Shown here: positions 2,194 to 27,304 of the stretch, one piece after another
Position numbering within the stretch: position 1 is the first letter of the stretch
How the letters are laid out: each line of letters opens with the position of its first letter
Origin: Microcystis aeruginosa NIES-843
GTDB taxonomy: Bacteria > Cyanobacteriota > Cyanobacteriia > Cyanobacteriales > Microcystaceae
Reading direction: 5' to 3'
DNA: 32,000 nt
Assembly: GCF_000010625.1 (NCBI RefSeq)
Contig: NC_010296.1
Coordinates: 5,550,001-5,582,000 of the forward strand
Notes under the pieces: generated by a model
Told to the model about the DNA's origin: nothing
What the model saw: the letters and a program-made list of their open reading frames with translations, nothing else
Databases searched by the model: none
Translations under genes and position numbers: made by a program

Positions 2194-2794
2194 GACTCTC
2201 CCGCATTTGTGATGATCAAAAAAGGTTTCTAGGCGAGGGCGTATGTTTTATGCCGCTACAGAAACCGAATTTGCCCCACTGTAGGGGCGCAAGGAAGCCG
2301 AGGACAAAATGTAATATATATTGAACATTTTTCACCATGATGTCGCAAGGTCTGTTATCGCTTTGAGGGAACAGGAAACGGGGAAGAAAATCGGCGCACC
2401 TCATTACTTTGAACCCTGTATCCTGAAATCCTATCATAGAAAAGAAAATTTGTCATGGTCAACAAAATTCGGTAATATGTGGTAGTCTGAGAAGCGCTCA
2501 CTAGCTTTAGCTATCAAAACAATGGTTACTTGTAGTAAGATAACGAGGGTTAAAAAAGCAGTAGCAGGGGGCTGAGAAAGCGATCACTCTATGCTGACAG
2601 ATAAAGCGACGGGAGTATGTTACCACAACTCAAGCACAATAACCTTAAAATTGTCGGGGAGCTTTATATTTTCGCCAATTGCCTTCTACTCCGCCAATCC
2701 AGCCAAAATCTAAAATCATCGGAAATTTTGGGTCTGAAACCCCGCCGTTTTACGGCGGCTTTGCTGTTAAATCTTAGCGCATTTACAAAATATG

Positions 2795-2803
2795 TGTTAG
2801 AAT
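2795..2803 (+). promoter_or_regulatory. Candidate extended -10 promoter (TGtTAGAAT) for tnpB, implying a leaderless or near-leaderless mRNA
   Basis: A TGnTAGAAT motif ends 7 nt before the tnpB ATG at 2811. The same motif (TGcTAGAAT) sits at the same offset in copy 2. No Shine-Dalgarno sequence lies between it and the ATG. Confidence 0.35.
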
Positions 2804-2810
2804 GTGAGAC

Positions 2811-3998
2811 ATGGAAAAAGCCTATTCGTTTCGATTTTACCCCACACCAACACAAGAGTCGCTATTGCGGCGCACATTGGGCTGTGTAAGATTAGTTTAC
2901 AACAAAGCTCTCCACGAACGAACACAAGCTTGGTACGAAAGACAAGAAAGAGTAGGATATACTGAAACTTCTTCAATGCTAACCGATTGGAAAAAACAAG
3001 AAGAATTAGAGTTTTTAAACGAAGTTAGCTGTGTACCTTTACAACAAGGGTTAAGACATTTACAAACAGCTTTTACTAACTTCTTTGCTGGTCGTACTAA
3101 GTATCCTAACTTTAAGAAAAAACATCAGGGAGGAAGTGCCGAATTTACCAAATCTGCTTTTAAGTTCAAAGACAAACAAATCTATTTAGCCAAATGCACA
3201 AAACCTTTACCTATTCGGTGGTCAAGACAAATACCAGAAGCTTGTGACCCAAGTACAGTAACAGTCAGATTACATCCTTCAGGACGTTGGCATATCTCAA
3301 TAAGATTTGATGACCCAACAATTAAGCCATTACCAGTAACAGATAAAGCCATCGGAATTGACTTAGGAATTAGTAGCCTCGTGATTACCAGCGATGGAGA
3401 CAAGGTATCTAATCCTAAGCATTTTAAGAAACATTATCGGAGACTGCGAAAGGCCCAAAAAAGCCTTTCTAGAAAACAGAAAGGCTCAAAAAATCGGGAA
3501 AAAGCAAGAATCAAAGTAGCAAGGATTCACGCTCGAATCACCGATAACAGAAAAGACCATTTACACAAGCTAACCACTCAATTAGTTCGTGAAAACCAAA
3601 CGATTGTGGTTGAGAATTTAGCCGTCAAGAATATGGTCAAAAACCCGAAATTATCTCAGGCAATATCTGACGTTAGCTGGGGAGAAATCACCCGACAATT
3701 AGCCTATAAATGCCGTTGGTACGGCAGAAATTACATCGAAATAGATAGATGGTTTCCTAGCTCTAAAAGGTGTAGTAATTGCGGGTATATTGCTGAGAAA
3801 ATGCCGTTAAATATTCGAGAATGGGACTGTCCAGACTGTGGGACACACCATGACCGAGATATTAACGCCAGTAAAAATATTTTGGCCGCAGGGCTTGCGG
3901 TGTCAGTCTGTAGAGCGACCATAAGACCAGAACAGAGTAAATCTGTTAAGGCAGGTGCGGAACCCCGCAAGGGAAAGAAGCAGAAACCTAAATCGTGA
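2811..3998 (+). CDS. tnpB: TnpB (IS605 OrfB family RNA-guided RuvC nuclease / transposon-associated protein)
   Basis: 395-aa ORF. RuvC-like motifs are IGIDLGI, VVENL and HDRDINAS. The zinc-finger motif is CSNCGY...CPDCG. The N-terminus MEKAYSFRFYPT is typical of OrfB/TnpB. Confidence 0.95.
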   Translation: MEKAYSFRFYPTPTQESLLRRTLGCVRLVYNKALHERTQAWYERQERVGYTETSSMLTDWKKQEELEFLNEVSCVPLQQGLRHLQTAFTNFFAGRTKYPNFKKKHQGGSAEFTKSAFKFKDKQIYLAKCTKPLPIRWSRQIPEACDPSTVTVRLHPSGRWHISIRFDDPTIKPLPVTDKAIGIDLGISSLVITSDGDKVSNPKHFKKHYRRLRKAQKSLSRKQKGSKNREKARIKVARIHARITDNRKDHLHKLTTQLVRENQTIVVENLAVKNMVKNPKLSQAISDVSWGEITRQLAYKCRWYGRNYIEIDRWFPSSKRCSNCGYIAEKMPLNIREWDCPDCGTHHDRDINASKNILAAGLAVSVCRATIRPEQSKSVKAGAEPRKGKKQKPKS

Positions 3999-4056
3999 GG
4001 TTTGGGAATCACCGTCCGTTTACGGCGGTGAGGATGTCAATCCAGCAAAATGTCCA
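3890..4056 (+). ncRNA. Predicted omega RNA (reRNA) of tnpB copy 1: scaffold overlapping the tnpB 3' end and right end, plus about 16 nt of flank-derived guide
   Basis: Placement follows the known TnpB architecture. Support from the sequence: a right-end hairpin with a compensatory base-pair change between copies, and a small hairpin CCC-GCAA-GGG (3964-3973) that is replaced by a UUCG-loop hairpin in copy 2. The 5' boundary is a guess. Confidence 0.4.
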
Positions 4057-4077
4057 CAACTCAAATATAAATGCTAT

Positions 4078-6147
4078 ATGTCCGCCAAAGTCCCTCAAGA
4101 TCGATCGACGACTAATATTATCTCCGATGTCAGCAAATTTTGGCACAGTGTCAAGCTGATCGCTGCTCCCTATTGGTATCCTACTGAATCGGGGGGAAGG
4201 ACTTTTGCCGATGTGATGAAAGCTTGGGCAATGCTCATCCTACTAATCGGGGCAATCCTAGGAGTTGTGGGATTAAATGCTTTCAATAGCTTTGTTAGTA
4301 ATTACTTAGTTGATGTCATCCTTGAAAAAAATGATTTTGATAAATTTGTCAGAACTTTGGTAGTTTTTGCGGTTGGACTGCTCTTTGTCACCCTTTTAGT
4401 TGGCTTGCTTAAATTTCTCAGAAAAAGAATCGCCCTAGATTGGTATGCTTGGCTCAATGACTGGATTCTCAACAAATATTTGCATAATCGCGCCTATTAC
4501 AGAATTAATTTTAAATCCGATATCGACAACCCAGATCAGCGTTTATCCCAGGAAATTGAGCCGATTACCAGTAAAGCTCTCTCCTTTTTTGCAGTTGCCC
4601 TGGAAAATGTCCTAGATATGATTACTTTTTTAGTGATTCTCTGGTCAATTTCTTCCTCTGTCGCCATTATCTTAGTCGTTTGGACAATTCTCGGTAACGT
4701 CATTGCTATCTATTTTAACCAAGCCTTAAATAAAATCACTCAAGAAGAATTAGAACTTAAGGCTAACTATAATTATGCTCTAACCCACATTCGTAATCAT
4801 GCGGAGTCAATCGCTTTCTTTGAGGGAGAAAATCAGGAATTAAATATTATTCAGCGGCGATTTAATAAACTCTTAGACAGCGCTAAACGTAAAATTGATT
4901 GGGAGAGAGGCACAGAAATTTTTAGTCGGGGCTATCAGGCGGCAATTCAAGTATTTACTTTTGTCATTTTGGGTCCTTTGTATATCAATAGTGAGGGCAT
5001 TAGTTTCGGACAGGTCGGGCAAGCCTGTTTAGCGGCTAATTTGTTTGCTACGGCGCTGGCGGAATTAATTAGTGAATTTGGCACTTCGGCACAATTTAGC
5101 AGTTATGTTGAACGTCTATCGCAATTTTCCCAAGCCTTAGAAGAAGTCATTAAACAACCGGAAAATTTAAGCACGATTAAAACCATCGAAGAAAACCAAT
5201 TTTCCTTTGAAGATGTCACCTTGCAAACCCCCGATTATGAACAGGTAATTGTCGAAAACCTCTCCCTTTCTGTTCAGCCAGGACAAGGTTTATTAATTGT
5301 CGGTCCGAGTGGTCGGGGTAAAAGTTCCTTGCTACGCGCAATTGCCGGTTTATGGAATGCAGGCACAGGCCGATTAGTGCGTCCCCCCCTAGAAGAAGTA
5401 TTGTTTCTGCCCCAACGTCCCTATATAATATTAGGAACCTTGCGAGAACAGTTACTTTATCCCAATCGCAATCAAGAAACCAATGAGATAAAATTAAGGG
5501 AAGTTTTACAAGAAGTCAATCTCCAAAATTTACTAAATCGAGTCAATAGCTTTGATACAGAAGAGCCTTGGGAAAACATTTTGTCCCTGGGAGAACAACA
5601 ACGTTTGGCTTTTGCTAGGGTATTAATTACCCGTCCCAGTTTTACTATCCTCGATGAAGCCACAAGTGCTTTGGACTTAAACAATGAGGAAAATTTATAT
5701 CGGCAATTGCAGAAAACTCACACAACTTTTATTAGTGTTGGACATCGGGAAAGTCTCTTTAACTATCATCAATGGGTTTTAGAACTCTCTAGTAATTCCC
5801 ATTGGCAACTGCTTACAGTGGAGGAATATCGCCGACAAAAAGTGAAAGAAATTATTAATATTTCTGTCGATAATTCTCAAGATAGGCTCGAAGATTTACC
5901 GAATCAGGAAACCGAGGTCAATCCTAAAATCAATTCTGCCGGGGAACCCCCCCCCGAATCGCCAACGACAACAATCTTAACAGAAGTCGAAGAGGGACTT
6001 TCCCATGCACAAATGAAGGAATTAAGCGACTATTCCCTTAGTAGCATCAGAAGCAAAGCCAGTCAGGGAAAATCAATTACGGGGAAAGATGGACTGACCT
6101 ATCGCTATGACAAAGACCCTAAAATCTTAAAATGGCTAAGAGTTTAG
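4078..6147 (+). CDS. ABC transporter, fused permease/ATPase of the SbmA/BacA-like (ABC_membrane_2, ABCD-like) type
   Basis: Motifs: Walker A GPSGRGKSS, signature LSLGEQQR, Walker B ILDEATSALD, H-loop SVGHR. The TMD carries DNPDQRLSQEI. Start is moved to M42 of the 730-aa track ORF (ATG 4078), because the first 41 codons lie inside the IS right end. About 100 aa extend past the NBD. Confidence 0.9.
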   Translation: MSAKVPQDRSTTNIISDVSKFWHSVKLIAAPYWYPTESGGRTFADVMKAWAMLILLIGAILGVVGLNAFNSFVSNYLVDVILEKNDFDKFVRTLVVFAVGLLFVTLLVGLLKFLRKRIALDWYAWLNDWILNKYLHNRAYYRINFKSDIDNPDQRLSQEIEPITSKALSFFAVALENVLDMITFLVILWSISSSVAIILVVWTILGNVIAIYFNQALNKITQEELELKANYNYALTHIRNHAESIAFFEGENQELNIIQRRFNKLLDSAKRKIDWERGTEIFSRGYQAAIQVFTFVILGPLYINSEGISFGQVGQACLAANLFATALAELISEFGTSAQFSSYVERLSQFSQALEEVIKQPENLSTIKTIEENQFSFEDVTLQTPDYEQVIVENLSLSVQPGQGLLIVGPSGRGKSSLLRAIAGLWNAGTGRLVRPPLEEVLFLPQRPYIILGTLREQLLYPNRNQETNEIKLREVLQEVNLQNLLNRVNSFDTEEPWENILSLGEQQRLAFARVLITRPSFTILDEATSALDLNNEENLYRQLQKTHTTFISVGHRESLFNYHQWVLELSSNSHWQLLTVEEYRRQKVKEIINISVDNSQDRLEDLPNQETEVNPKINSAGEPPPESPTTTILTEVEEGLSHAQMKELSDYSLSSIRSKASQGKSITGKDGLTYRYDKDPKILKWLRV

Positions 6148-6208: not shown

Positions 6209-7378
6209 ATGAATCAAACCCTGGTTAATCAACAACAGTTGTTCCAAGAAATCGTCCAAGATATCGAGCAAAATAAAATTGCAATCGCGGCGAAAAAACT
6301 CCGTCAACAGGAAGCAGATAGCTGTGAAGTTCCGGCTCAGTGGCTCTGGAAAACAGCAGCGGCTTTAGAAACCAACGACTGGAGCATTTTATCAGAAGAT
6401 TTCATTAATCTGAATTTTATCGGCAAAAATGGTTATTTTCTGATGATTGCTCCCTATCGCATCAATCGTCAGGGAGAACGACAACTCACGTTGAGTGCAA
6501 TTTACGGAAAAATTCACCAAAATAGTCAACCTTCTATCGAACAACTAGAAAGCTTGACTCGTGAAAAATTTGGCAGTCTAAGACAACCGATTCCCAGAAA
6601 TTTATCCTTTACTGAAATTGCTAGTTGCGGCACGGTTAAAGGTGAAAAGGGGGAGGCTTTTATCGTTCCCCATAGGTGGACTTTTCCCAATAGTGTTCAG
6701 GGACCAGCTTTAAATAATGCCAGTGAGCAAAAAAGACGCTTTTCCGGTTCTAGCTATGAATGTATCCGAAAAATTTTTGAGCCAGAAACGGCCGATTTGC
6801 TATTAGGACCCCTGGAGGATCAAATTAATGGTGAACGCTATCGTCATCTCGATACCCAATTCCATGAAGCGGGTCATGCTAGTGGGTTGGGATTTGACTT
6901 AAAACTCAAAAATAAACTGTTTCAAAACTATACCTATGCCGGAGTCGAGGAGTGGCGCTCAGATAGTTTAGGCTTTGAATTTGCCGATTGTGCTTTACCT
7001 GCCGAAGAAGCGGGAAAATTAGTCGCTGTTAATTTCTGCATTCGCTTTGGTTTAGATGCTCACCGTTTAGGGGGTTTAGAAAAAGATGTGGATGTCCACG
7101 CTAGTTTGATCAGTTTGGAATATCTCTTGCAAAATGATGCCATTTATCTCACAAAAAATGGTCAATTGTCTCTGCGTAATGTCAGTTATCCAGGCTTACT
7201 AAAAGCGGTGGAAATGCACCGAACAAAAGCCTTATCTCTAACGCGAAGGGAGTTAAATCTAAATAGTCCAACAGGTCTTTTTGCTCTGTATAAAGTAGAG
7301 ATTCATCCCGCAACCCAATTAATTTTTCAGGGACTAATTGTAGAGCGCTGCCGAGGAATTTGGTTAGAGTTACAATAA
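6209..7378 (+). CDS. Hypothetical protein with HExxH...E (gluzincin-like) metallopeptidase signature
   Basis: 389-aa ORF starting 61 bp after the ABC transporter. It contains the motif FHEAGHASG followed by GVEEWRSD about 25 residues later. I recognise no family. Confidence 0.7.
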   Translation: MNQTLVNQQQLFQEIVQDIEQNKIAIAAKKLRQQEADSCEVPAQWLWKTAAALETNDWSILSEDFINLNFIGKNGYFLMIAPYRINRQGERQLTLSAIYGKIHQNSQPSIEQLESLTREKFGSLRQPIPRNLSFTEIASCGTVKGEKGEAFIVPHRWTFPNSVQGPALNNASEQKRRFSGSSYECIRKIFEPETADLLLGPLEDQINGERYRHLDTQFHEAGHASGLGFDLKLKNKLFQNYTYAGVEEWRSDSLGFEFADCALPAEEAGKLVAVNFCIRFGLDAHRLGGLEKDVDVHASLISLEYLLQNDAIYLTKNGQLSLRNVSYPGLLKAVEMHRTKALSLTRRELNLNSPTGLFALYKVEIHPATQLIFQGLIVERCRGIWLELQ

Positions 7379-7576: not shown

Positions 7577-7626
7577 GATCCCCCCTGCCCCCCTTAATAA
7601 GGGGGGTGCCGACAGGCGGGGGGATC
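7577..7626. repeat. Nested G/C-rich palindromic element
   Basis: The inner palindrome CCCCCCTTAaTAAGGGGGG is perfect. The outer arms GATCCCCCCTGCC / GGCGGGGGGATC are nearly complementary. Confidence 0.5.
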
Positions 7627-7792: not shown

Positions 7793-9817
7793 ATGACAAA
7801 ACCAATGGCTGAACAACGCTCTGTACTAAAATTTAATGGCATCGATGATCACATGGATCTATCCCACGGATTTCTTGACATCGATCAGAGTATTACCATT
7901 ACATTTTGGGCAAAAGGGGAAAATAATTTAGCTACAGAAACGACTCTTTTAGAAGCTGTTAATCGGGAAAATAACCGCGTTCTACATATTACCTTGCCTT
8001 GGGGCGATCCCGTGAAACCTGCGATTTTTTGGGATGCGGGTAATGAAGAAGGTTTCGATCGAATTGAAAAAAAAGTCAAGCTTAAGGATTATAGCGATTG
8101 GACTCATTGGGCCTTTGTCAAAAATGCGACCACAGGCCGAATGTTGATCTATCGTAATGGGATCATTTGGCATCGTGGCAACGGTCATAACCGTGCCTTA
8201 ACGGGGATTGAAAAAATCATCTTGGGAGCCTCTGTTAATCTCTCTCATTATTGGCAAGGTTGTCTTGCAGAACTTTCTGTTTGGAATCAAGCGCGTAGCC
8301 AAGAAGAAATCCAAAAAGCGATGTATCAATCTCCCTTAGTTGATGACCTTGGCTTAGTTACTTATTTATCACTCAATGGCAGTGCCGAGGATCAAACAAG
8401 TTATAGCAATCATGGTATTCTTTATGGGACAACCTGGCAACTAGATAGTCTTCCCTCCAAACCGACCTCGATCCCTAAATCAAAAACTCAGACTAGCAGT
8501 AAAGCTAGAAGGAGTGCGAAAAGGATAACAATGGTCAACGAAATTTTTAACTCCCTTGAAGAAGAAGAAGTGATTGAACAGGATGCTCCATCCGAAAATC
8601 AAGAACCTTCCCGGGAAGAGAATCCAGAATCAATTATAATTGCTGCAGAAGCTGCTCTTGCCAGCAATGAAATTGAGGAGATTAGTGAAACAGCAATTTC
8701 TCAACCAGATATCCTCACTTATTCAAACCAGAAAAAACGGTTAATTATTTGTTGTGATGGTTCTTGGGAAGACTCTGCCAGTGCTTACCCCACCAATGTG
8801 GTTAAATTCGCCGAATCTATTAAGTATATTGCCGAGGATCAAACCCCCCAAATCGTCTTTTTGTCAGGTTCTGGCACACCCGAAGATAACGAATTTATTA
8901 AAAGTTTAGGGAATGAAACTTTTGGCTGGGGCCTTGATCGAATGATTCAAGATGCCTATCGTTTTCTTGTCCTTAACTACAATCCCACAACCGAGGATGA
9001 AATTTATTTGTTAGGTTTTAGTCGAGGCGCATATATCGTTCGTTGTTTGGCTAGTTTTATCGATAAATGTGGAATCCTAAAACGCTCTAAGATTAAAGAA
9101 ATTCCCCTAGCTTATCAACTCTATCGAGACCACACCGTTAGTTCTGATAGTGCCAAAGCTCAACAATTCCGTGCCGCTAATGCTAAAAAAATTGAGACAG
9201 AAAAGGAAGATTTTCAAGATCGTATTCCAGTCAAGATGTTAGGTTGTTGGGATACAGTTGGCAATTTTGGTATTCCTGATTTAACTCCTTGGTTTCCCTT
9301 GGCTAAGTTTTATCATAAAAAATATGAATTTAGTAACACAAAATTAAGTCCGATTATCCAGAATGCTTTTCATGCTGTGGCCATTGATGAAAAACGTAAA
9401 AACTTCCCTTATACTCCGATCAAAGCCAATCCAGAAAATCCCGAACAAGTTGTTAAAGAAGTTTTATTTGTGGGTGAACATACCTGTCTAGGTGGTGGCA
9501 AAAAAGAATATCAAGGACTTTCCGATTACCCGTTACAATGGATGATTAATCAAGCCAAAAAATTGGGATTAGAGTTTGACTCAACCACCTCTGAATCTGA
9601 GGAATTCCAAATTAAACTAGACCCGACCATCAAGTTCGATAATACTGTTAAAGGATTGTCGGCCTTGGGAGGTGAGCAATGGCGATATTTCAATACAAAA
9701 GTTGTCACTGTTCATCACAGTGTGGTAAAACGATTAAAGGCTTTTTCCGATTATCGTCCCAAAAGTCTTGAACCTTTTCTTCAAGCTTTACTTGACGACG
9801 ATCAACAGACAGATTAA
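7793..9817 (+). CDS. LamG (concanavalin-A-like lectin, Laminin_G_3) domain fused through an acidic linker to a DUF2235 alpha/beta-hydrolase domain (T6SS Tle1 phospholipase-like fold)
   Basis: The N-terminal ~215 aa carry ITFWAK...WTHWAF...LAELSVWNQARSQEEIQ. The C-terminal domain has LIICCDGSWED...YPTNV, the nucleophile elbow GFSRGA, GCWDTVGNFGIPD, HAVAIDEKR and VGEHTCLGG. Confidence 0.9.
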   Translation: MTKPMAEQRSVLKFNGIDDHMDLSHGFLDIDQSITITFWAKGENNLATETTLLEAVNRENNRVLHITLPWGDPVKPAIFWDAGNEEGFDRIEKKVKLKDYSDWTHWAFVKNATTGRMLIYRNGIIWHRGNGHNRALTGIEKIILGASVNLSHYWQGCLAELSVWNQARSQEEIQKAMYQSPLVDDLGLVTYLSLNGSAEDQTSYSNHGILYGTTWQLDSLPSKPTSIPKSKTQTSSKARRSAKRITMVNEIFNSLEEEEVIEQDAPSENQEPSREENPESIIIAAEAALASNEIEEISETAISQPDILTYSNQKKRLIICCDGSWEDSASAYPTNVVKFAESIKYIAEDQTPQIVFLSGSGTPEDNEFIKSLGNETFGWGLDRMIQDAYRFLVLNYNPTTEDEIYLLGFSRGAYIVRCLASFIDKCGILKRSKIKEIPLAYQLYRDHTVSSDSAKAQQFRAANAKKIETEKEDFQDRIPVKMLGCWDTVGNFGIPDLTPWFPLAKFYHKKYEFSNTKLSPIIQNAFHAVAIDEKRKNFPYTPIKANPENPEQVVKEVLFVGEHTCLGGGKKEYQGLSDYPLQWMINQAKKLGLEFDSTTSESEEFQIKLDPTIKFDNTVKGLSALGGEQWRYFNTKVVTVHHSVVKRLKAFSDYRPKSLEPFLQALLDDDQQTD

Positions 9818-9868
9818 CCTTGCTTTAGAATTAAACTAATCCTTCGCTAGAAATTTGAGGTGATTTTT

Positions 9869-10354
9869 ATGGAACTCGATAACATTATCAAAAAAGTGGC
9901 AGGTACTTATTTAGCTTCGGCTATTATTGCTGTCATCGTGCTAATTCTGACCCTCGGACAACCCTTTGTAGTTTTTCTGGGTATTGGAGCGATGGGGTTG
10001 GTTACTGTGCTAGGAGATGCGATTGCTCAGTACGGAATTGAAGCGGTTCTGAATGCTTTTTACACTGAGCGAAGTAAAAAAGAATCCCTGGAAACACTTT
10101 TGGCTGAAATTGATGCTTTACCTCTGACTGATGACCTGAAATTAAAAACCAAAAAACACTTGACTGACCATCAAGAACAGACAGTAAAGCAGCAAGAAAC
10201 GGTAACTGAGCCAACTCCTGAAAGTCCTCAAACAGTTGTTATTGAAAATGAACCAGTTATTGAAAATGAACCAGTTATTGAAAATGAACCAGTTATTGAA
10301 AATGAACCAGTTATTGAAAATGAACCGGTTGTTGTTGAAGTTGAAAATGTTTAA
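9869..10354 (+). CDS. Small membrane protein (two predicted TM helices) with a charged tail ending in an (IENEPV)5 repeat
   Basis: The ATG at 9869 is preceded by GAGG at 9857-9860; the track start at 9860 is a GTG. The hydrophobic stretches are YLASAIIAVIVLILTL and FVVFLGIGAMGLVTVLG. It starts 51 bp after the DUF2235 gene. Confidence 0.7.
   Translation: MELDNIIKKVAGTYLASAIIAVIVLILTLGQPFVVFLGIGAMGLVTVLGDAIAQYGIEAVLNAFYTERSKKESLETLLAEIDALPLTDDLKLKTKKHLTDHQEQTVKQQETVTEPTPESPQTVVIENEPVIENEPVIENEPVIENEPVIENEPVVVEVENV
10241..10330 (+). repeat. Tandem repeat, 18 bp x 5 (ATTGAAAATGAACCAGTT), in frame
   Basis: Four identical units plus one unit with a single A>G change. They encode IENEPV x5. Confidence 0.95.
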
Positions 10355-10438
10355 TTAGGTATTGCTCCCTCTTGCAATAGCTGGGGGCAGCGGATGATTA
10401 TTGCTAAGTATTGAGGAATTTTTTGGTCTAAGATAGCT

Positions 10439-12127
10439 ATGCTAAATAGGAACTCTCAACATCTGATGACCTATAAAAAAATTGCCATTTATGAGCAAAG
10501 CTATCAACTTCCTGTTTTTAAAAATAGATACTTAAAAAATTTTCAGAAAATCATCAAGGAACGTCGGAAATTAATTCAAGAAGGAGTTCGCTACCATTAC
10601 TATTTTGGTAAGATTATTAAACGAAAAGAAAAAATTACTCAACAAGAAATCTTGATCGAGACTCAGTTATTAATTAAAGACTATAATTTATTAATTAATG
10701 GACTAGAAATCTATCAAGACGGATATTATCGTTTTTTACTCCAACTCAGTGACAATCTCAAAATTTTATTTTCCCAAAAATATCAAGAATTGAAAATCTT
10801 AGACTACGAGAGAATAAAGTTAGAAATTAAAAATAATAATAATCAAAATATTCTCAATCAACTCAAGCTAGAAAAACAGGAAAATTTTCGGGCAATTTTG
10901 CTACTGGGAAAAACATCTTTTTTGATGTTGAGAAAAACTAAATTACTAGGGGAAGGAGTTCAGAAATTAGCCGAGGATACTCAAAAGCAGAAAAAAATTG
11001 TGCAAGCAATTATTCAAGAACTCAAAATTTATGAGGAATTAAATCATTATCAACTCAAATCTCAACGAGTTCGCCAAGAAATTGCGGATCTTGCCCAAAA
11101 TGCGATTAATTTTGAAAACTACTTACAGGACTATTTTGCTCCTTTTCAATTATTAATAGAAGAAGTGATTAAGGTGGATGAAGAATTTTATGCAACAGTT
11201 GGAGAAATTAAGTATTTGGTAGATAATATTTTTCCGCCTCAGCCTGCTCTCTTAGAAACGTCAGATTCAGCCATAAATTCTGAGTTTTTGCTAAATTTTA
11301 TGGCGACTGGTTACGAGAAAGAAGCAAGGTTAAAAGAGGCTTTTTCCTCGGATCAATTTAATGATTACTTATTCAATGAAAGTGAATGGTCAGAACAATT
11401 TATTTCCCTAGAAAAAACCATCAATAAATTATCTCATCATTTAGCAGAACAAGAGGCTTGTCAAAAAGACACTATCCCCAAAACTCCCCTAGCAATAGTT
11501 GTCTCTCAATTCACTCAAAACAATATTCACAAATCTTCTACTTCTAAAAATCCCCAGACTTCCCCAAATATCTTAACTCAAGAATCGGCTGATATTGATT
11601 ATAATCAATTACAAGATTTGCTAAGAAAGCAACAGTGGCAAGCGGCCGATCGCCAAACAACCAAGCTACTATTGAAAATCTTGCGTAAGACCTACTGGAA
11701 TGAGGTTTATCCTCAAGATATTGCTCAATTACCTTGTTCGGATCTGAAAAAAATTGATCAACTTTGGCTTCATTATAGTCATGGTCATTTCGGTTTTAGT
11801 ATTCAGCAAGCCATTTTCTCTAGTCTCGGTGGTTTAGTGGATTATGAAACCCAAAAGAAACTTGGCGATCGCCTAGGTTGGCGGAAGGAAGGTCAATGGC
11901 TCAATTATGAGCAACTAAACTTTGAATTAGAGCCGAATTCTCCCCTCGGTCATTTACCCGTTCATTGGTTGATTTTTGAAGAAAATCTTTGTTACCCATC
12001 TGCGGAAGCTTCTGACAATCAAAACTCCCTGGCTTTCTGGAGAGTTGGCAATTGGTTATTGTGGCAACTTCACCTCGTTTTAAGCAAAATTCAAGCCTGT
12101 GGAATTATTCCTCTGTCTGACTTTTAA
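10439..12127 (+). CDS. Coiled-coil protein with C-terminal GUN4 (porphyrin-binding) domain
   Basis: The C-terminus reads QQWQAADRQTTKLLL...LPCSDLKKIDQLWLHYSHGHFGFSIQQAIFSSLGG...LGDRLGWRKEGQWLNYEQLNF...PLGHLP, which matches the GUN4 core. The N-terminal ~350 aa are K/E/Q/L-rich and likely coiled coil. Confidence 0.85.
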   Translation: MLNRNSQHLMTYKKIAIYEQSYQLPVFKNRYLKNFQKIIKERRKLIQEGVRYHYYFGKIIKRKEKITQQEILIETQLLIKDYNLLINGLEIYQDGYYRFLLQLSDNLKILFSQKYQELKILDYERIKLEIKNNNNQNILNQLKLEKQENFRAILLLGKTSFLMLRKTKLLGEGVQKLAEDTQKQKKIVQAIIQELKIYEELNHYQLKSQRVRQEIADLAQNAINFENYLQDYFAPFQLLIEEVIKVDEEFYATVGEIKYLVDNIFPPQPALLETSDSAINSEFLLNFMATGYEKEARLKEAFSSDQFNDYLFNESEWSEQFISLEKTINKLSHHLAEQEACQKDTIPKTPLAIVVSQFTQNNIHKSSTSKNPQTSPNILTQESADIDYNQLQDLLRKQQWQAADRQTTKLLLKILRKTYWNEVYPQDIAQLPCSDLKKIDQLWLHYSHGHFGFSIQQAIFSSLGGLVDYETQKKLGDRLGWRKEGQWLNYEQLNFELEPNSPLGHLPVHWLIFEENLCYPSAEASDNQNSLAFWRVGNWLLWQLHLVLSKIQACGIIPLSDF

Positions 12128-12133
12128 AGTGAT

Positions 12134-12272
12134 TATAGCGTTTCCCAATCTCATGAGGTACATCAAAATCTTAACTCCCGAATCCTGAATCCTGAATCCT
12201 GAATCCTGAATCCTGAATCCTGAATCATCAAAACCTAAGACTCTGTACCTCACAACTATGGGAATTGCTATA
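12134..12272. repeat. MITE-like element: conserved arms flanking a (GAATCCT)6 heptamer tract (12180-12227)
   Basis: The arms TATAGCGTTTCCCAATCTCATGAGGTACA... and ...TGTACCTCACAACTATGGGAATTGCTATA recur inverted at 31302-31405, where the core heptamer differs. Confidence 0.8.
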
Positions 12273-12389: not shown

Positions 12390-13231
12390 ATCCTAAATCC
12401 TGTTTTAAAAAGCAGATAACAATCAATCCTAAGTTAGCCAATGATAGTTAGTCAAGTTTTTAATTTCATTAGTCATTGTTTCTTCCATTGCTTCAATCGT
12501 TTCAAAATGCTCATTAACCAGGGGTTCATCTACTAGAGACCATAATCTCTCGGCTGGCTGTAATTCTGGCGAATAAGCAAAGTAGAAAATCGAGCATGAT
12601 TCCCTCGGCAACCTAAAGTTTTTGACTTCTATCTGAGAATTGGGAAATTTATCGCTTAATTATTGGACTTTTACTGGTAAATTCTGCTTAAATTTTTCTG
12701 GTTTAACTGGGTCTCCCTTTTTATGTTTTGGTCTCGGTTTTTGACAAGAATATCTGCACTTTTTTTAAGTAATCCCATCCCCTTTGATTCCAAACTTTTT
12801 CTCGTCCCGTTTCCTTTTCTATCCATCTAGCCACCTTCGGACCTGTCCAGATTCCTCCATCGGCAGGACGTTTTTTCAGTTCTTCTTTTAATTTTTGCAA
12901 TTGTTCTTCCTTCAATAAAGGTTCTTTTCCTCTCCGATGTTCCCCACTTTTTTTCTTGAGATTTTTAACTCCTTCTTCCCCTAATTCATTATATCTTTTG
13001 AGAATTCTAAAACTATATTGATAATCTAATCCTACAGCTACTGCAGCATTTTTGATTGTCCATCCTAACGATATTTTCCACAATAAGTGCCATCTTCTTG
13101 TTTCTACTGAGTCTTGACTTCTTCTGTATCTATCTTTCAGTTCCTCTGAACTTAGATGTTCGGCTAAGTAAGCTTTCTTGGGCATTTTATCTCATTGTTT
13201 TTATTTACCCTATTATAACAGGATTTAGGCT
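12390..13231 (-). mobile_element. IS630-family element remnant with internal deletion
   Basis: Terminal inverted repeat core CCTAAATCCTGTT at 12392-12404 and, reverse-complemented, at 13217-13229. Only the N-terminal HTH part and the extreme C-terminal part of the transposase remain. Confidence 0.8.
12429..13185 (-). pseudogene. IS630-family transposase pseudogene (frameshifted, in-frame stop, most of the DDE domain deleted)
   Basis: The 154-aa ORF MPKKAYLAEHLSSEELKDRYRR... is the HTH region. After a frameshift the reading continues as ...CRYSCQKPRPKHKKGDPVKPEKFKQNLPVKVQ*. The 60-aa ORF holds ...YSPELQPAERLW...NLTNYHWLT, the C-terminal end. About 110 bp lie where roughly 170 codons would be expected. 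Confidence 0.8.
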
Positions 13232-13415
13232 CAAACGGTAAGTCTGCCAAAGGAAGCGTCAAAAGCGCAAAATCTGCGAGATTAGTTTTGGAAACGCTAA
13301 TCTCAGCGAAGCGGATTAGCTTAGTTCATATCGATCTCATCGAAAATTTTGGGTCTGAAACCCCGCCGTTTTACGGCGGCTTTGCTGTTAAATCTTAGCA
13401 CATTTACACGATATA

Positions 13416-13424
13416 TGCTAGAAT
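13416..13424 (+). promoter_or_regulatory. Candidate extended -10 promoter (TGcTAGAAT) for tnpB copy 2
   Basis: Same motif and same 7-nt spacing to the ATG (13432) as in copy 1. Confidence 0.35.
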
Positions 13425-13431
13425 GCGGGAT

Positions 13432-14613
13432 ATGGAAAAAGCCTATTCGTTTCGATTTTACCCCACACCAACACAAGAGTCGCTATTGCGGCGCACTTTG
13501 GGCTGTGTAAGATTAGTTTACAACAAAGCTCTCCACGAACGAACACAAGCTTGGTACGAAAAGCAAGAAAGAGTAGGCTACGCTCAAACTTCTTCAATGT
13601 TGACTGAGTGGAAAAAACAAGAAGAATTAGACTTTTTAAACGAAGTAAGCTGTGTACCTTTACAACAAGGGTTAAGACACCTACAAACAGCTTTTACTAA
13701 TTTCTTTGCTGGTCGTACTAAGTATCCTAACTTTAAGAAAAAACATCAAGGAGGAAGTGCCGAATTTACCAAATCTGCTTTTAAATTCAAAGACAAACAA
13801 ATCTATTTAGCTAAATGCACAGAACCCTTACCTATTCGATGGTCAAGACAAATACCAGAAAGCTGTGAACCAAGCACAGTAACAGTCAGATTACATCCTT
13901 CTGGACGTTGGCATATTTCAATAAGATTTGATGACCCAACAATCCAGCCATTACCCCCAACCGATAAAGCCATCGGAATTGACTTAGGAATTAGTAGCCT
14001 CGTGATTACCAGCGATGGAGACAAGGTATCTAATCCTAAGCATTTTAAGAAACATTATCGGAGACTGCGAAAGGCCCAAAAAAGTCTTTCTCGAAAACAG
14101 AAAGGCTCAAAAAATCGGGAAAAAGCGAGAATCAAAGTAGCAAGGATTCACGCTCAAATTACTGATAGTAGAAAAGACCATTTACATAAGCTAACCACTC
14201 AATTAGTTCGTGAAAACCAAACGATTGTGGTTGAGAATTTAGCCGTCAAGAATATGGTCAAAAACCCGAAATTATCTCAGGCAATATCTGATGTAAGCTG
14301 GGGAGAAATCACTCGACAATTAGCCTATAAATGCCGTTGGTATGGGAGAAACTACATCGAAATAGATAGATGGTTTCCTAGCTCTAAAAGGTGTAGTAAT
14401 TGCGGGTATATTGCTGAGAAAATGCCGTTAAATGTTCGAGAATGGGACTGTCCAGACTGTGGGACACACCATGACCGAGATATTAACGCGAGTAAAAATA
14501 TTTTGGCCGCAGGGCTTGCGGTGTCAGTCTGTAGAGCGACCATAAGACCAGAACAGAGTAAATCTGTTAAGGCAGGTGCGAAAAATCCTTCGGGACCCCA
14601 AGCAGAAACCTAA
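13432..14613 (+). CDS. tnpB: TnpB (IS605 OrfB family RNA-guided nuclease), copy 2
   Basis: Start chosen at the MEKAYSF ATG that is homologous to copy 1; the track ORF starts 3 codons earlier at 13423. RuvC and Zn-finger motifs are intact. By hand I count 13 substitutions versus copy 1 over the shared 383 residues, followed by a different C-terminal tail. Confidence 0.93.
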   Translation: MEKAYSFRFYPTPTQESLLRRTLGCVRLVYNKALHERTQAWYEKQERVGYAQTSSMLTEWKKQEELDFLNEVSCVPLQQGLRHLQTAFTNFFAGRTKYPNFKKKHQGGSAEFTKSAFKFKDKQIYLAKCTEPLPIRWSRQIPESCEPSTVTVRLHPSGRWHISIRFDDPTIQPLPPTDKAIGIDLGISSLVITSDGDKVSNPKHFKKHYRRLRKAQKSLSRKQKGSKNREKARIKVARIHAQITDSRKDHLHKLTTQLVRENQTIVVENLAVKNMVKNPKLSQAISDVSWGEITRQLAYKCRWYGRNYIEIDRWFPSSKRCSNCGYIAEKMPLNVREWDCPDCGTHHDRDINASKNILAAGLAVSVCRATIRPEQSKSVKAGAKNPSGPQAET

Positions 14614-16994: not shown

Positions 16995-17209
16995 CCTCGT
17001 CGTGGGGGATTGATCCCCCATCTTGCCGAGCGTGTGCGAGTTTTGGCAAAGTCGAGAGATTATCGATTTTGGCAAGCGATAGGATAGTCAATGGCCCGAT
17101 CGATGCGCTTCAACACGACAAATTAGGCATTCTGTCAAGAGAAATTAACAAATTTAAATATTTCTCGACCTAATCGATTCTCGAAAAAATTTACCGGAGG
17201 AAATGAACG

Positions 17210-19579
17210 ATGTCCCAAGATAAGCCGATTCAACGCCAAATTCTACCGATTCCCGACTTAACCCCCTTCGGTCTAACCACCTACGACGCGAAGAATCCGG
17301 ACACTGACTATCCCCCGATTCGAGATATCCGACCGCCGGCCGGCGCGCCCAACGTGCTGATCGTGCTGCTCGATGACGTGGGCTTCGGAGCCTCCAGTGC
17401 CTTCGGTGGCCCGTGCAATACCCCCACTTTCGAGCGATTAGCGGCACAGGGGCTAAAATATACCCGTTTTCATACCACTGCCCTCTGCTCTCCCAGCCGC
17501 GCGGCTTTGCTCTCTGGAAGGAATCATCACTCGGTCGGCATGGGCAACATCACCGAAACCGCCACCTCCGCCCCCGGGCAGAGTTCCGTTCGTCCCAACA
17601 CCAAAGCACCCCTCGCCTTGACCCTGAAGCTGAACGGCTATTCCACGGCGCAGTTCGGTAAGTGCCACGAGGTACCGGTTTGGCAAACCAGCCCGATCGG
17701 CCCGTTTGACGCTTGGCCCTCTGGCGGGGGTGGATTCGAGTATTTCTACGGCTTTATCGGTGGCGAGAATAACCAGTGGGAGCCGGCACTGTACGAGGGA
17801 ACAACCCCGATCGAACCGCCGAAAACCCCGGAGGAAGGGTATCACCTGACCGAAGATCTGGCTGATCGAGCGATCGCTTGGGTCAGTCAACAAAAAGCCC
17901 TCGCCCCCGATAAGCCTTTCTTTATGTACTTCGCCCCCGGCGCGACCCATGCCCCCCACCACGTCCCCAAGGAATGGATCGACAAGTATCGGGGCCAATT
18001 CGCTCACGGTTGGGATCACCAGAGGGAGATTACCTTTGCCCGACAGAAAGAACTGGACGTAATTCCCCAAAATGCCGAACTCACCCCCCGTCACGCCGAA
18101 ATTCCCGCCTGGGATGACATGGATGATCGCCTGAAGCCGGTATTAGAGCGCCAGATGGAGGTGTACGCCGCCTTTCTGGAACATACCGATGAGCAGGTGG
18201 GACGGGTGATTCAAGCCTTAGAAAATCTAGAAATCCTCGACGATACGCTCGTTTACGTCATCATCGGCGATAACGGCGCATCCGCCGAGGGAACGCTTCA
18301 GGGCGCGTTTAACGAGATGGCCAACTTTAACGGGTTAGCGGGTCTAGAAACCCCGGAATTTCTCCTCTCGAAACTGGATGACTTCGGCGCGCCCGATTCC
18401 TATAATCACTACGCGGTCGGTTGGGCTTGGGCGATGAGTAGCCCCTACAAATGGACGAAGCAGGTCGCTTCTCACTGGGGCGGGACCCGCAACGGTACGA
18501 TTGTTCGTTATCCCAAAATCATCACGGAAAAAGGTGGGATTCGCCATCAGTTCTGTCATCTGATCGATGTGGCCCCGACGGTGTTGGCAGTAGCGGGAAT
18601 TCCCGAACCGACTATGGTTAACGGTGTCCTACAAAGTCCCTACGAGGGTACGAATATGGTTTATACCTTTAACGACGCGGCCGCCCCCGAACGTCACGAT
18701 GTGCAGTATTTCGAGATGTTTGGCAATCGGGGCATCTATTACAAGGGTTGGAGTGCGATTACCAAGCACCGCACCCCGTGGATTATGACTGGACAGACGA
18801 TGGTTCCTTTCGACGATGATATCTGGGAACTATACGACGGCAGTACGGATGGGACGCAAGCTCGGGATCTCTCCCGGGAAATGCCAGAGAAACTGCACGA
18901 ACTACAGCGACAATTTCTGATCGAGGCGGTTAAGTATAATGTACTGCCCCTAGACGATCGCCAAGTGGAACGGGTCGATCCCGCCACCGCTGGCCGGCCT
19001 ACCCTCGTGCGGGGAAACTCGCAATTATTCTTTGCCGGGATGGGGCGTTTGTCTGAAAATAGCGTCATCAACATCAAAAATAAATCCTTCTCGGTGACGG
19101 CGGAACTGAACATTCCCCCGGAAGGCGCGGACGGGGTGATTATCGCCCAAGGCGGCCGCTTCGGTGGTTGGAGTGTCTATACCCACGACGGAAAAGCCAA
19201 GTTCGTCTATAACGTGCTGGGGATTCAAAGTTTTGTCACCGAGGCGACGGAGACGATCCCGGCCGGTAAGCATCAGGTACGGATGGAGTTTGCCTACGAT
19301 GGCGGTGGTTTAGGACGGGGGGGAAATGTCACCCTCTACTACGACGGTCAACTGGTGGGTACGGGTCGGGTAGAACGAACTCAGGCTTTTATTTTCTCTG
19401 CGGACGAGACCACGGATATCGGCTACGAATCCGGTACCCCCGTAGCGGCGGAATATACCTCGAAAACCAGTCGTTTCACCGGCAAGATCGGTTGGGTTCA
19501 ACTGGATGTGGGTACGGACGCTCATGACCACCTGATCGACCAGGAGGAACGTCTGAAAATTATCATGGCCCGGCAGTAG
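17210..19579 (+). CDS. Arylsulfatase (type I, formylglycine-dependent sulfatase family, large AtsA-like form)
   Basis: 789-aa ORF. Motifs are LIVLLDDVGFG and the CxPxR formylglycine motif LCSPSRAALLSGRNHH (Cys codon at 17486-17488). The gene is GC-rich. Confidence 0.93.
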   Translation: MSQDKPIQRQILPIPDLTPFGLTTYDAKNPDTDYPPIRDIRPPAGAPNVLIVLLDDVGFGASSAFGGPCNTPTFERLAAQGLKYTRFHTTALCSPSRAALLSGRNHHSVGMGNITETATSAPGQSSVRPNTKAPLALTLKLNGYSTAQFGKCHEVPVWQTSPIGPFDAWPSGGGGFEYFYGFIGGENNQWEPALYEGTTPIEPPKTPEEGYHLTEDLADRAIAWVSQQKALAPDKPFFMYFAPGATHAPHHVPKEWIDKYRGQFAHGWDHQREITFARQKELDVIPQNAELTPRHAEIPAWDDMDDRLKPVLERQMEVYAAFLEHTDEQVGRVIQALENLEILDDTLVYVIIGDNGASAEGTLQGAFNEMANFNGLAGLETPEFLLSKLDDFGAPDSYNHYAVGWAWAMSSPYKWTKQVASHWGGTRNGTIVRYPKIITEKGGIRHQFCHLIDVAPTVLAVAGIPEPTMVNGVLQSPYEGTNMVYTFNDAAAPERHDVQYFEMFGNRGIYYKGWSAITKHRTPWIMTGQTMVPFDDDIWELYDGSTDGTQARDLSREMPEKLHELQRQFLIEAVKYNVLPLDDRQVERVDPATAGRPTLVRGNSQLFFAGMGRLSENSVINIKNKSFSVTAELNIPPEGADGVIIAQGGRFGGWSVYTHDGKAKFVYNVLGIQSFVTEATETIPAGKHQVRMEFAYDGGGLGRGGNVTLYYDGQLVGTGRVERTQAFIFSADETTDIGYESGTPVAAEYTSKTSRFTGKIGWVQLDVGTDAHDHLIDQEERLKIIMARQ

Positions 19580-19696
19580 AAAAGGGGACTTGCGATCGAC
19601 GGTTTCGCTTATTCGGTCTTAGGGGAGGAATCGCGATCGCTGGCGAGCCAATGTTTAATAGATCTCCTGCAAAAATCAAAAATTGTCGTAGTTAGT

Positions 19697-20046: not shown

Positions 20047-20738
20047 GTGCGGGTTAGTAATAACCTTAGTCCTGTCCTCTAGATGCCTAGAGTGACGGCA
20101 TTTCCTGCTGCTTTAGACTTGGTACATCTGAGGTAGTGAGCGAGGAAAAAAAAGCGGTATCTGATAGCCTAAATCAGAAACCCGTTGAGCCAGAACCTAT
20201 GGATAGCCCTGGGGCGAAGATACGAATTAACCATCGTCAACACCCACGAGCCAAAAGGCTGACAGGCTCGAAACAAAAGTTAACAGAGTTGGGGCTGATA
20301 GCTCATACCACTATCAGTAAGGCATTCCCGTTACTCTGTTGTGGACAGTATCATCCTAAGGGTTCAACCAATGGTTATAGGGAACGAAGTAACCCTGATT
20401 GACTCTGCCCGTTCGGGGCAGTAGGAAACCATCCGCAAGTCAATAGAGGGAGAGGATGTCCTTAAAAGCCAAGGCTTTGAGTAATATCAAAGATATGCTG
20501 ACAAAGGACGGGTAACTAGGAAGTCTAAGCAACAATCAACGGTCATATACGCCCTAAAACCAACAATCTTGTCTGGTGGGGATACAGCCAAGAGGGTTGA
20601 ATAGACAAGGAAATAATAATTCCCATTATTATTCTACTAATGACAGTAGCCTAGTTACTCAGGAGCCGGATACGGCGAAAGTCGTAAGTCCGGTTTTGAA
20701 GCAGGGGGTGGGAAGGCGACTTCCTGCTCTACTGTAAC
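20047..20738 (+). mobile_element. ORF-less group II intron (ribozyme only, no reverse-transcriptase/maturase ORF)
   Basis: The 5' end GTGCG at 20047 fits the GUGYG consensus. A canonical 34-nt domain V lies at 20663-20696, GAGCCGGAUACGGCGAAAGUCGUAAGUCCGGUUU, with the AGC triad, a GAAA tetraloop and a 2-nt bulge. It aligns position for position with the ai5gamma and Ll.LtrB domain V. A short domain-VI-like hairpin follows. The 3' end is uncertain, at 20732 (..CTAC) or 20738 (..TAAC). The domain IV region is too short for an IEP. Confidence 0.75.
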
Positions 20739-23413: not shown

Positions 23414-23449
23414 GGCATTTCTCCTATGGGATTGTTGAAAAATTTACTG

Positions 23450-25126: not shown

Positions 25127-25206
25127 TTTTTCTCCTTTTTTGCCTGATTCTGGACAGGTTACGTTAACAACAGCAGACGGTTCACAAATAGGATATTTTC
25201 CCTTTG

Positions 25207-25674: not shown

Positions 25675-25710
25675 TATGAAAGATCATTATGATCACCCTT
25701 GAGTGAGTTA

Positions 25711-27225: not shown

Positions 27226-27304
27226 GGCAAATCCTCCTAATTATGTCAGATTATGAGTGTTTATGTAAGTAAAGTGAAGGCGACATTTTTGAGGCAGCGA
27301 AGTG

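Follow-up and report, generated by a model that had tools for sequence, protein, structure and literature searches.

A lipase, a two-helix membrane protein and a GUN4 protein encoded side by side at the exporter end of cyanobacterial peptide clusters

We analysed a stretch of 32,000 nucleotides from Microcystis aeruginosa NIES-843 (NC_010296.1, positions 5,550,001 to 5,582,000; hereafter the window, with coordinates counted from its first letter). Our subject is a trio of genes at 7793-12127 that adjoins the cyanopeptolin (mcn) genes mcnF and mcnG, and whose relatives recur in other peptide clusters of cyanobacteria. The first gene encodes a laminin-G-like (LamG) domain fused to a DUF2235 lipase, the second a small membrane protein with two transmembrane (TM) helices, named TM2 here, and the third a coiled-coil (CC) protein ending in a GUN4 domain, CC-GUN4. 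The three open reading frames (ORFs) are co-oriented on the + strand with intergenic gaps of 51 and 84 bp, exactly where an earlier note, made from the sequence alone, had placed them.

7793-9817, + strand: LamG-DUF2235 lipase, 674 aa
9869-10354, + strand: TM2, small two-TM hairpin protein, 161 aa when read from the ATG (with a GTG at 9860)
10439-12127, + strand: CC-GUN4 protein, 562 aa, identical to BAG05832.1

Three genes and their products

Pfam matches bore out the domains that had been claimed for the first and third products. The lipase carries Laminin_G_3 (PF13385) at residues 16-174 (7838-8314; E 2e-16, profile positions 2-151 of 151) and T6SS_Tle1-like_cat/DUF2235 (PF09994) at residues 315-587 (8735-9553; E 4e-75, profile positions 1-287 of 287). 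The linker, described earlier as acidic, is only partly so: in residues 216-310 a basic stretch comes first and the acidic part follows. The catalytic motifs are GFSRGA at residue 408 (9014-9031; nucleophile Ser410), CWDTV at residue 485 (9245-9259; Asp487) and GEH at residue 561 (9473-9481; His563). That they are intact, as had been stated, was upheld by an alignment of 27 sequences reaching down to 33% identity, in which the Ser410, Asp487 and His563 columns are invariant. A profile built from this alignment aligns the motifs to the Tle1 structures 9j3f, 4o5p and 6sjl. Neither a signal peptide nor a TM segment was predicted in the LamG-DUF2235 protein, and we read the lipase as cytosolic as encoded, with intact catalytic motifs. 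Its full-length homologues, about 47 or more, come from cyanobacteria only.

In Nostocales, about 25 loci hold a LamG protein of ~710 aa near TM2, and all 25 of the 25 full-length LamG-only neighbours proved to be LamG-patatin, with a patatin phospholipase in place of DUF2235. The LamG domains of LamG-DUF2235 and LamG-patatin are homologous from residue 1 (28% identity, E 2e-12). DUF2235 and patatin are unrelated lipase folds, and the catalytic fold is interchangeable behind a homologous LamG. Both folds stand behind this LamG and next to TM2; LamG and TM2 are therefore the constant elements. The Nostoc patatin part matches the phospholipase "Effector" models of PADLOC (E 1e-60), which we take to be models of effectors of the cyclic-oligonucleotide-based antiphage signalling system (CBASS), the PADLOC output naming no system. 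LamG-patatin is present in some and absent from other closely related Nostoc strains.

TM2, in agreement with its earlier description as a two-TM protein with a repeat tail, contains one hydrophobic hairpin (residues ~13-50, helices TM1 and TM2) with a GxGxxG stretch. Its other parts are an N-terminal amphipathic helix, a juxtamembrane motif (GDAIAxYGIEAVLNAxYxERSK; invariant across the family in the form GDxxAxYG(I/V)(E/D)AV...Y.ER.K.E), a helical K/E-rich segment and an acidic tail. The tail is encoded by an 18-bp tandem repeat at 10238-10334 on the + strand (unit GTTATTGAAAATGAACCA x 5.4), which yields VIENEP repeats; between Microcystis strains it varies from 0 to 8 copies, giving proteins of 136-179 aa with a hypervariable acidic tail. 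Searches of Pfam (up to E 1), NCBIfam, PADLOC and PHROGs gave no usable match, and no holin, immunity or defence family; TM2 likewise matched neither the SLATT families nor any Pfam model. We regard TM2, from these searches, as a new family that has no database model. Its AlphaFold2 model is of low confidence.

A profile search over 1.84 billion representatives returned 218 TM2 representative clusters, among them fusions to an AIG1-type GTPase, an Mrr/NA-iREase1 nuclease, a nitrilase (carbon-nitrogen hydrolase) and XRE or MerR helix-turn-helix (HTH) domains. The fusion representatives are P0357, P0440, P0352, P0380, P0401 and P0391; P0357, the GTPase fusion from Tolypothrix, also bears a C-terminal glycine-zipper TM. 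Since TM2 is fused to such varied enzymes, it behaves as a portable membrane-anchoring module, which may possibly be pore-forming. Weak "Colicin-K immunity" matches occurred solely on a repetitive Spironucleus protein picked up by the TM2 profile (P0365) and were discarded as spurious. The short loop between the TM helices places both termini of TM2 on the same side of the membrane, and its soluble parts would face the cytoplasm. Given this topology and the lack of an export signal in the two large proteins, all three products could meet on the cytoplasmic face of the membrane.

The GUN4 domain of CC-GUN4 (PF05419) spans residues 382-508 (11582-11962; Pfam, E 1e-36), and solved GUN4 structures confirm it by sequence (E 3e-17) and by fold (Foldseek, E 1.5e-5). 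With it goes a conserved C-terminal helix, WRVGxWLxWQ. In the AlphaFold model, of low overall confidence (pLDDT, the predicted local distance difference test, 58), the N-terminal part forms a short helix and β-hairpin at residues ~12-65 and a long helical hairpin at residues 68-262 (10640-11224), and the middle region between the helical hairpin and GUN4 is poorly modelled. No TM or signal segment was predicted. The N-terminal 370 residues have no significant structural relative in a Foldseek search of the PDB, where significant matches were to GUN4 only; assignments of this region to the PspA/Vipp1, HlyD or SMC coiled coils were dropped, all with Foldseek E above 0.4. Conservation within the family (~560 aa) runs the entire length of the protein, with ~50% identity in Nostoc, Planktothrix, Scytonema and Calothrix.

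When the trio was run against PADLOC-DB v2, the GUN4 domain alone gave a match: 11555-11977 fits the PD-T4-6 model (E 8e-36) at its C-terminal profile positions 295-429 of 450, and DUF2235, TM2 and the CC domain gave none. This suggests that PD-T4-6, a validated anti-phage protein family, carries a GUN4-like domain; no paper linking the two was found in our literature search. The earlier note had stated that GUN4 domains have been proposed as sensors in cyanobacterial conflict systems, which is accurate: cyanobacterial GUN4 proteins outside chlorophyll synthesis have been proposed to sense tetrapyrroles (Kaur, Burroughs, Iyer and Aravind 2020, PMC7159879). CC-GUN4 may itself be the tetrapyrrole-sensing regulator that the earlier note proposed.

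Position in the cyanopeptolin cluster

The genes around the trio are as follows.

1-2193, - strand: N-terminal part of a nonribosomal peptide synthetase (NRPS) gene running off the left window edge (phmmer against an NRPS seed, E<1e-8)
2811-3998, + strand: TnpB (OrfB) of the IS605 family, between the NRPS and ABC genes (Pfam OrfB_IS605, Cas12f1-like_TNB and HTH_OrfB_IS605)
3955-6147, + strand: McnF-type ATP-binding cassette (ABC) exporter, a half-transporter with ABC_membrane_2 and ABC_tran (Pfam, NCBIfam)
6209-7378, + strand: McnG (DUF6014; Pfam E 3e-92)
12429-13185, - strand: remnants of an IS630-like transposase (HTH domains; Pfam HTH_29/HTH_32), the end of the cassette in NIES-843
13423-14613, + strand: second TnpB copy

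The published order of the NIES-843 cyanopeptolin cluster is McnE, McnC, McnB, McnA, an unknown protein, a transposase, McnF (ABC transporter) and McnG (unknown) (PMC2779907). The protein encoded at 6209-7378 and BAG05829.1, listed as "McnG protein" in M. aeruginosa NIES-843, are identical. This identity, and the match between the window layout and the published order, make the trio the immediate 3' neighbour of mcnF-mcnG. By context, the NRPS gene at 1-2193 is the start of the cyanopeptolin synthetase genes (the mcnA side), divergent from mcnF, whose true start probably lies downstream of the GTG at 3955. A reading of this upstream region as microviridin remnants was rejected, the region being the 5' end of the minus-strand NRPS gene. 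The trio is co-directional with mcnF and mcnG and directly adjoins them, and by adjacency it belongs to an extended mcn cluster.

Two near-alike TnpB elements in direct orientation (2617-3998 and 13349-14613) bracket the mcnF-mcnG-trio block of ~10.6 kb. The similarity of the two TnpB copies extends to their upstream sequences, where translated ORFs (2617-2889 and 13349-13510) are almost the same.

No terminator-like site was predicted on the + strand between the trio genes, a result in line with the earlier note's grouping of the three; the sole + candidate is weak and lies inside the TM2 ORF. Terminator and promoter counts in the trio are not clearly above those in shuffled sequence. In the spacer between mcnG and the trio, a GC-rich nested hairpin with a T-run lies at 7577-7626 on the + strand (-40.2 kcal/mol, z -4.3). 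Among 14 aligned Microcystis and Snowella loci (L016-L029), it was present, besides the window, only in L019 and L025; being an insertion specific to some strains, it was rejected as a conserved mcnG/trio terminator. Just past the CC-GUN4 stop, at 12176-12226, the 7-bp unit TCCTGAA is repeated in tandem 7.3 times.

Comparison of flanks showed that gnd (6-phosphogluconate dehydrogenase, 6PGD) takes the position of the IS630 remnants in many other strains, which places the trio at one chromosomal site with alternative upstream clusters. The Microcystis upstream contexts are mcnG, or a set of aminotransferase, O-methyltransferase, reductase and ABC genes. Both share a conserved stretch of about 200 bp ahead of the LamG start, which suggests that the trio carries its own upstream region.

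Linkage across cyanobacterial peptide loci

Linkage was surveyed from two anchors. The TM2 alignment, scanned against GTDB genomes at one per species, gave 167 relatives, all from cyanobacteria, and 79 genome loci were mapped with 10-kb flanks; for the gene maps, ORFs were called by a simple program and identified with custom profiles and seeds. CC-GUN4 was followed by four context look-ups and a metagenome scan. The earlier note had left its grouping to stand or fall with conserved linkage in homologue neighbourhoods, and such linkage was found: all 14 of the Microcystis (12) and Snowella (2) genome loci have the order LamG-DUF2235, TM2, CC-GUN4, and the 51- and 84-bp spacing is identical in every Microcystis locus. 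The trio follows mcnF/mcnG in 8 Microcystis genome loci and ~20 metagenome loci, and 6 others have another upstream context or none retained. Upstream sequence is retained in ~22 of ~25 Microcystis metagenome loci, all with the order ABC, (McnG), LamG-DUF2235, TM2, CC-GUN4. The chromosome of Microcystis sp. BLCC-F210 holds two copies of the trio at different positions (L025, L026).

Beyond these genera, pairwise links reach Planktothrix, Aphanothece, Lyngbya and Nostocales, and in Oscillatoriales and Nostocales the same families, 45-60% identical in protein sequence, stand in rearranged order. Planktothrix sp. PCC 11201 has LamG-DUF2235 followed by TM2, Aphanothece has two TM2 genes, LamG-DUF2235 and then NRPS/polyketide synthase genes, and in two uncultured Oscillatoriales loci LamG-DUF2235 stands between two TM2 genes beside a microviridin cluster. 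NRPS or microviridin ATP-grasp genes lie within 10 kb of TM2 in 59 of the 79 loci; the base rate of such cluster proximity is estimated to be far below this 75%. Within the same distance, a LamG-lipase is found in 47/79 loci (the other 32/79 have no lipase) and CC-GUN4 in 22/79, 21 of these 22 with an ABC gene too. The immediate neighbour of TM2 is a LamG-lipase in 26 cases, CC-GUN4 in 15 and the first NRPS gene in 30; in 8-9 cases, in microviridin clusters, its place is between ATP-grasp ligases and ABC.

These data bear on the simplest alternative, that three unrelated accessory genes became neighbours by chance in the plastic, insertion sequence (IS)-rich Microcystis genome. TnpB and IS630 remnants do flank the block, and each family is found alone somewhere, which fits chance; yet the order is kept in every Microcystis and Snowella locus, and the families recur, permuted, in Oscillatoriales and Nostocales with protein identities of 45-60%. 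We consider chance extremely improbable.

The same survey bears on the earlier note's suggestion of an effector paired with a holin- or immunity-like protein. In its full form, the lipase would be a secreted Tle1-like toxin against competitors, TM2 its cognate immunity protein or holin-like export partner, and GUN4 a regulator. The alignment of DUF2235 with Tle1 structures of the type VI secretion system (T6SS) fits this picture, as do a small membrane protein gene directly downstream of the lipase, a constant N-terminal module with swapped C-terminal lipase folds in the manner of polymorphic toxins, and the hypervariable TM2 tail. However, the scanned ORFs of the window include no VgrG, Hcp, PAAR or other secretion gene, and the lipase carries neither a signal peptide nor a known trafficking domain. 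TM2 lacks the signal peptide or lipobox that marks periplasmic immunity proteins of the Tli type and gave no match to a holin or immunity family. TM2 forms two subfamilies that follow taxonomy and not lipase type. If TM2 conferred immunity by blocking the active site, one would expect it to differ between the two folds; its constancy argues against fold-specific immunity. The same TM2 family accompanies both lipase folds, lacks a lipase in 32 of the 79 loci, and also stands before NRPS genes, inside microviridin clusters and in fusions to unrelated enzymes. The effector-immunity pairing was thus not supported, and we judge the toxin explanation improbable.

What the earlier note had missed is the dominant context: mcnF/mcnG here and, in relatives, anabaenopeptin, microviridin and other NRPS clusters, near the ABC exporter. 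In 18 of 27 informative non-Microcystis loci an ABC exporter gene lies directly upstream of CC-GUN4 (in 2 of the 18 with a GNAT gene between), and TM2 adjoins CC-GUN4 in 7 of the 27. The anabaenopeptin-type cluster of Nostoc punctiforme PCC 73102 reads TM2, hphB, hphCD, TM2, NRPS genes, hphA, ABC, CC-GUN4 and a 142-aa gene, with 30 bp between ABC and CC-GUN4. Calothrix NIES-4105, likewise in an anabaenopeptin-type cluster, has on one strand LamG-patatin, TM2, NRPSs, ABC and CC-GUN4. Two loci (L126, L148) form a single co-directional array of LamG-patatin, TM2, ABC, CC-GUN4 and a small protein, that of L148 inside a microviridin cluster, and Nostoc microviridin clusters hold the precursor, two ATP-grasp ligases, TM2, ABC, (GNAT) and CC-GUN4. 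We conclude that a set of ABC exporter, LamG-lipase, TM2 and CC-GUN4 recurs, together or pairwise, in at least six cluster types and three cyanobacterial orders.

A protein of ~135-145 aa (motif DIEIEILLxGKWRF) follows CC-GUN4 in Nostoc, Planktothrix, Calothrix and ~19 metagenome loci; mapped copies are listed below. Pfam, PHROGs and NCBIfam contain no match to it, and the Microcystis cassette lacks it; in filamentous genera it probably makes up a fifth member of the module.

L001, 9746-10171: ~140-aa protein
L097, 8745-9173: ~140-aa protein
L095, 8737-9144: ~140-aa protein
L098, 11292-11693, - strand: ~140-aa protein

Genes for DUF6014 (McnG-like) proteins stand beside ABC, TM2 and NRPS genes in Chamaesiphon and Stigonema (L085, L043), which makes McnG another widely shared accessory family of such clusters.

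The exporter linkage could also reflect a non-lytic role. CC-GUN4 would then partner the ABC_membrane_2 exporter in the cytosol and bind cargo or a ligand there, its macrocycle-binding GUN4 pocket holding a tetrapyrrole or the cyclic peptide, TM2 an exporter subunit or scaffold, and the lipase an enzyme remodelling local lipids or acting on another ester substrate. The ABC-CC-GUN4 adjacency (18/27 loci, gap down to 30 bp) favours this explanation, and so do the position of TM2 between the ATP-grasp ligases and ABC in microviridin clusters and before the first NRPS gene in 30 loci, and the many loci that have TM2 and/or CC-GUN4 and no lipase. The microviridin ABC transporter is, moreover, reportedly a membrane scaffold for biosynthesis. 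However, clusters for chemically unrelated peptides share a single CC-GUN4 family (~50% identity), making product-specific binding unlikely; in P. agardhii TM2 and CC-GUN4 occur away from any cluster or ABC gene; and a conserved, motif-intact phospholipase with two alternative folds is left without a role. We hold a purely exporter-related function, and with it a peptide- or tetrapyrrole-holding pocket serving transport, to be rather unlikely.

A putative membrane-directed module and its relation to known systems

We tentatively favour the reading of the trio as one conserved accessory cassette of cyanobacterial peptide natural-product loci, which would form a regulated, membrane-directed phospholipase module with the ABC exporter, while holding it at somewhat short of an even chance. 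TM2 would be a membrane docking or gating subunit and not a fold-specific immunity protein, bringing the LamG-lipase (through the constant LamG or the linker) and CC-GUN4 to the membrane beside the exporter. The GUN4 domain would bind a tetrapyrrole or bilin, possibly another macrocycle, and report pigment or membrane damage or light status. The output would be regulated hydrolysis of membrane lipids, leading to local remodelling or vesiculation or to outright lysis, which could release stored protease-inhibitor peptides and/or sacrifice a damaged or infected cell.

Several observations weigh against this cassette reading. The families are not bound to one another or to clusters: eleven of the 79 TM2 loci have no partner within 10 kb, and P. 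agardhii carries a solitary LamG-DUF2235 gene and, with neither a cluster nor an ABC gene beside it, a divergent pair of TM2 and CC-GUN4. Independent events are fewer than the counts imply, many of the Nostoc loci being orthologous, and part of the Microcystis signal for different clusters may reflect a recombination hotspot. LamG_3 domains are usually extracellular, a poor fit to a cytosolic protein. Profile-profile comparison with hhalign found no adaptor domain, in the manner of effector-associated domains (EADs), common to TM2 and its partners, and the putative TM2-LamG, TM2-CC-GUN4 and CC-GUN4-ABC interactions are predicted from gene order.

A different account of the same lipase and sensor would be an intracellular anti-phage or anti-parasite abortive-infection system that hitch-hikes in peptide-cluster islands, with LamG or GUN4 sensing and the lipase, with or without a TM2 pore, killing. 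The closeness of the patatin version to the PADLOC "Effector" models (E 1e-60) and the match of GUN4 to PD-T4-6 are in its favour, and the fusion partners of TM2, AIG1 GTPase and Mrr/NA-iREase1, are domains typical of conflict systems (Kaur 2020). LamG-patatin is polymorphic for presence in Nostoc, and IS elements flank the window copy. Yet no NTPase, cyclase or known signalling core was found beside the genes (Pfam in the window, the mapped loci elsewhere), and DUF2235, TM2 and the CC domain have no PADLOC model. Hitch-hiking also leaves unexplained the co-directional insertion, seen in several cluster types, between biosynthetic genes and the ABC exporter (L148, L126, L051, L033) and a CC-GUN4 start 30 bp after the exporter gene. 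This account is, in our estimate, doubtful, if worth keeping in mind.

A bolder version of the cassette reading, which we regard as distinctly unlikely, is a release switch. CC-GUN4 would sense free tetrapyrrole or bilin and unleash the LamG-phospholipase at a platform of ABC exporter and TM2; the cell would rupture or vesiculate, discharging the protease-inhibitor peptides that it stores. The triggers would be pigment or thylakoid damage from high light, grazing or infection, and the peptides cyanopeptolin, anabaenopeptin and microviridin. If true, such a switch would be an altruistic chemical-defence detonator that has no described counterpart, and would tie cyanopeptide ecology to regulated cell death.

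Few bloom metabolites are as abundant as anabaenopeptins, cyanopeptolins and microviridins, whose regulation, storage, release and purpose are long-standing questions. A conserved non-biosynthetic gene set at the exporter end of several unrelated clusters offers knock-out targets, in such tractable strains as N. punctiforme and M. aeruginosa PCC 7806, that bear on how pigment or light status, membrane integrity and peptide release are connected. The analysis further delineates two protein families that lack annotation, TM2 and the one of ~140 aa after CC-GUN4, and cautions that a "Tle1 effector" annotation in cyanobacteria is not to be taken as evidence of a T6SS toxin.

In our literature search a single earlier trace of this set came up. 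For Fischerella PCC 9339 and Nodularia CCY9414, the microviridin clusters were noted to contain a GUN4-superfamily gene and a hypothetical gene, with function given as unknown (Micallef et al. 2015, PMC4558948). By their position after the exporter, these GUN4 genes most probably belong to the CC-GUN4 family; that paper makes no link to TM2, LamG-lipases, or anabaenopeptin or cyanopeptolin clusters. Two published accounts of anabaenopeptin clusters name only aptA-D, hphA-D and an ABC transporter. Our literature search returned no description of the trio genes, and none joining GUN4 with anabaenopeptin or cyanopeptolin, or patatin with anabaenopeptin. The domain annotations themselves are routine; the module of several families, the exchange of DUF2235 for patatin behind a common LamG, TM2 as a family with its fusions and the pairing of exporter and CC-GUN4 appear not to have been described before.

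Elsewhere in the window, another DUF2235 gene (27305-28414, - strand, 369 aa, no LamG) heads a co-directional row at 22397-28414. It has no TM2 or GUN4 partner and therefore represents a different, envelope-directed arrangement. The genes that follow it, all on the - strand, are:

25711-27225: phage-lysozyme and PG_binding_1 protein
following ORF: 155 aa
23450-25210: DUF4127 protein
following ORF: Ig-like protein, 338 aa

A protein of 789 aa at 17210-19579 combines a sulfatase, SGSH_C and a weak LamG_3 match; its LamG is not similar to that of the lipase. The surrounding stretch, 17001-19600, has a GC content of 55-56% against a background of ~40%; the gene was possibly acquired horizontally. 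A group II intron match (Rfam RF00029; 55 bits, E 2e-8) lies at 20661-20738 on the + strand, with no obvious intron-encoded ORF nearby.

Among known systems, T6SS Tle1/Tli1 pairs share with the window lipase a homologous catalytic domain (PF09994; 4o5p, 6sjl, 9j3f) and the motifs DGxW, GFSRG, WDTV and GxH..GG. The window enzyme differs in being cytosolic as encoded and in its N-terminal LamG, with no T6SS genes and no VgrG- or PAAR-related module; T6SS components were absent among the window ORFs (Pfam) and the related loci (as mapped with custom profiles and seeds). Unlike periplasmic Tli1, TM2 is a TM hairpin, of a new family, that would face the cytoplasm, and the window locus lies within a biosynthetic cluster. 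Polymorphic toxins likewise combine a constant part with a variable one, as LamG and the lipase folds do here, but the LamG proteins have no trafficking domain and the small protein family stays constant across the would-be toxins. TM2 superficially resembles a phage holin (small, two TM helices, a charged tail), while the trio contains no endolysin and Pfam and PHROGs gave no holin match. With SLATT and other two-TM pore-forming effector modules, and with glycine-zipper hairpins, it shares the form of a small hairpin that stands alone or is fused to conflict-type enzymes; no sequence match to the SLATT families or to a Pfam model was found.

CC-GUN4 shares a homologous porphyrin-binding core and the motifs FGFSxQ, LGWR and GHLP with canonical GUN4/Ycf53 (1y6i, 1z3x). 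Canonical GUN4, a Mg-chelatase cofactor that binds Proto IX and Mg-Proto and stimulates the enzyme, has two domains in ~230 aa, with a small helical N-domain, whereas CC-GUN4 has 562 aa, a 370-aa coiled-coil N-terminal region and another genomic context. The systems of Kaur 2020 likewise set a GUN4 domain specific to cyanobacteria, outside chlorophyll synthesis, beside effector-type enzymes. Their GUN4 domains are fused or linked to cores of the MoxR-vWA, STAND or GTPase kind; the one in the trio is joined to a coiled coil and linked to an ABC exporter. No such core flanks the trio (window Pfam) or was seen in the related loci (custom profiles and seeds only), the AIG1 GTPase occurring only in fusions of distant TM2 paralogues. 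CBASS, finally, differs in that the trio has no cyclase or nucleotide sensor, the window gene is DUF2235 and not patatin, and LamG, TM2 and CC-GUN4 are not CBASS components. Its CapV-type patatin effectors nonetheless resemble the patatin domain of the Nostocales counterparts, and the logic we favour for the cassette would likewise be that of a lipase restrained until a signal arrives.

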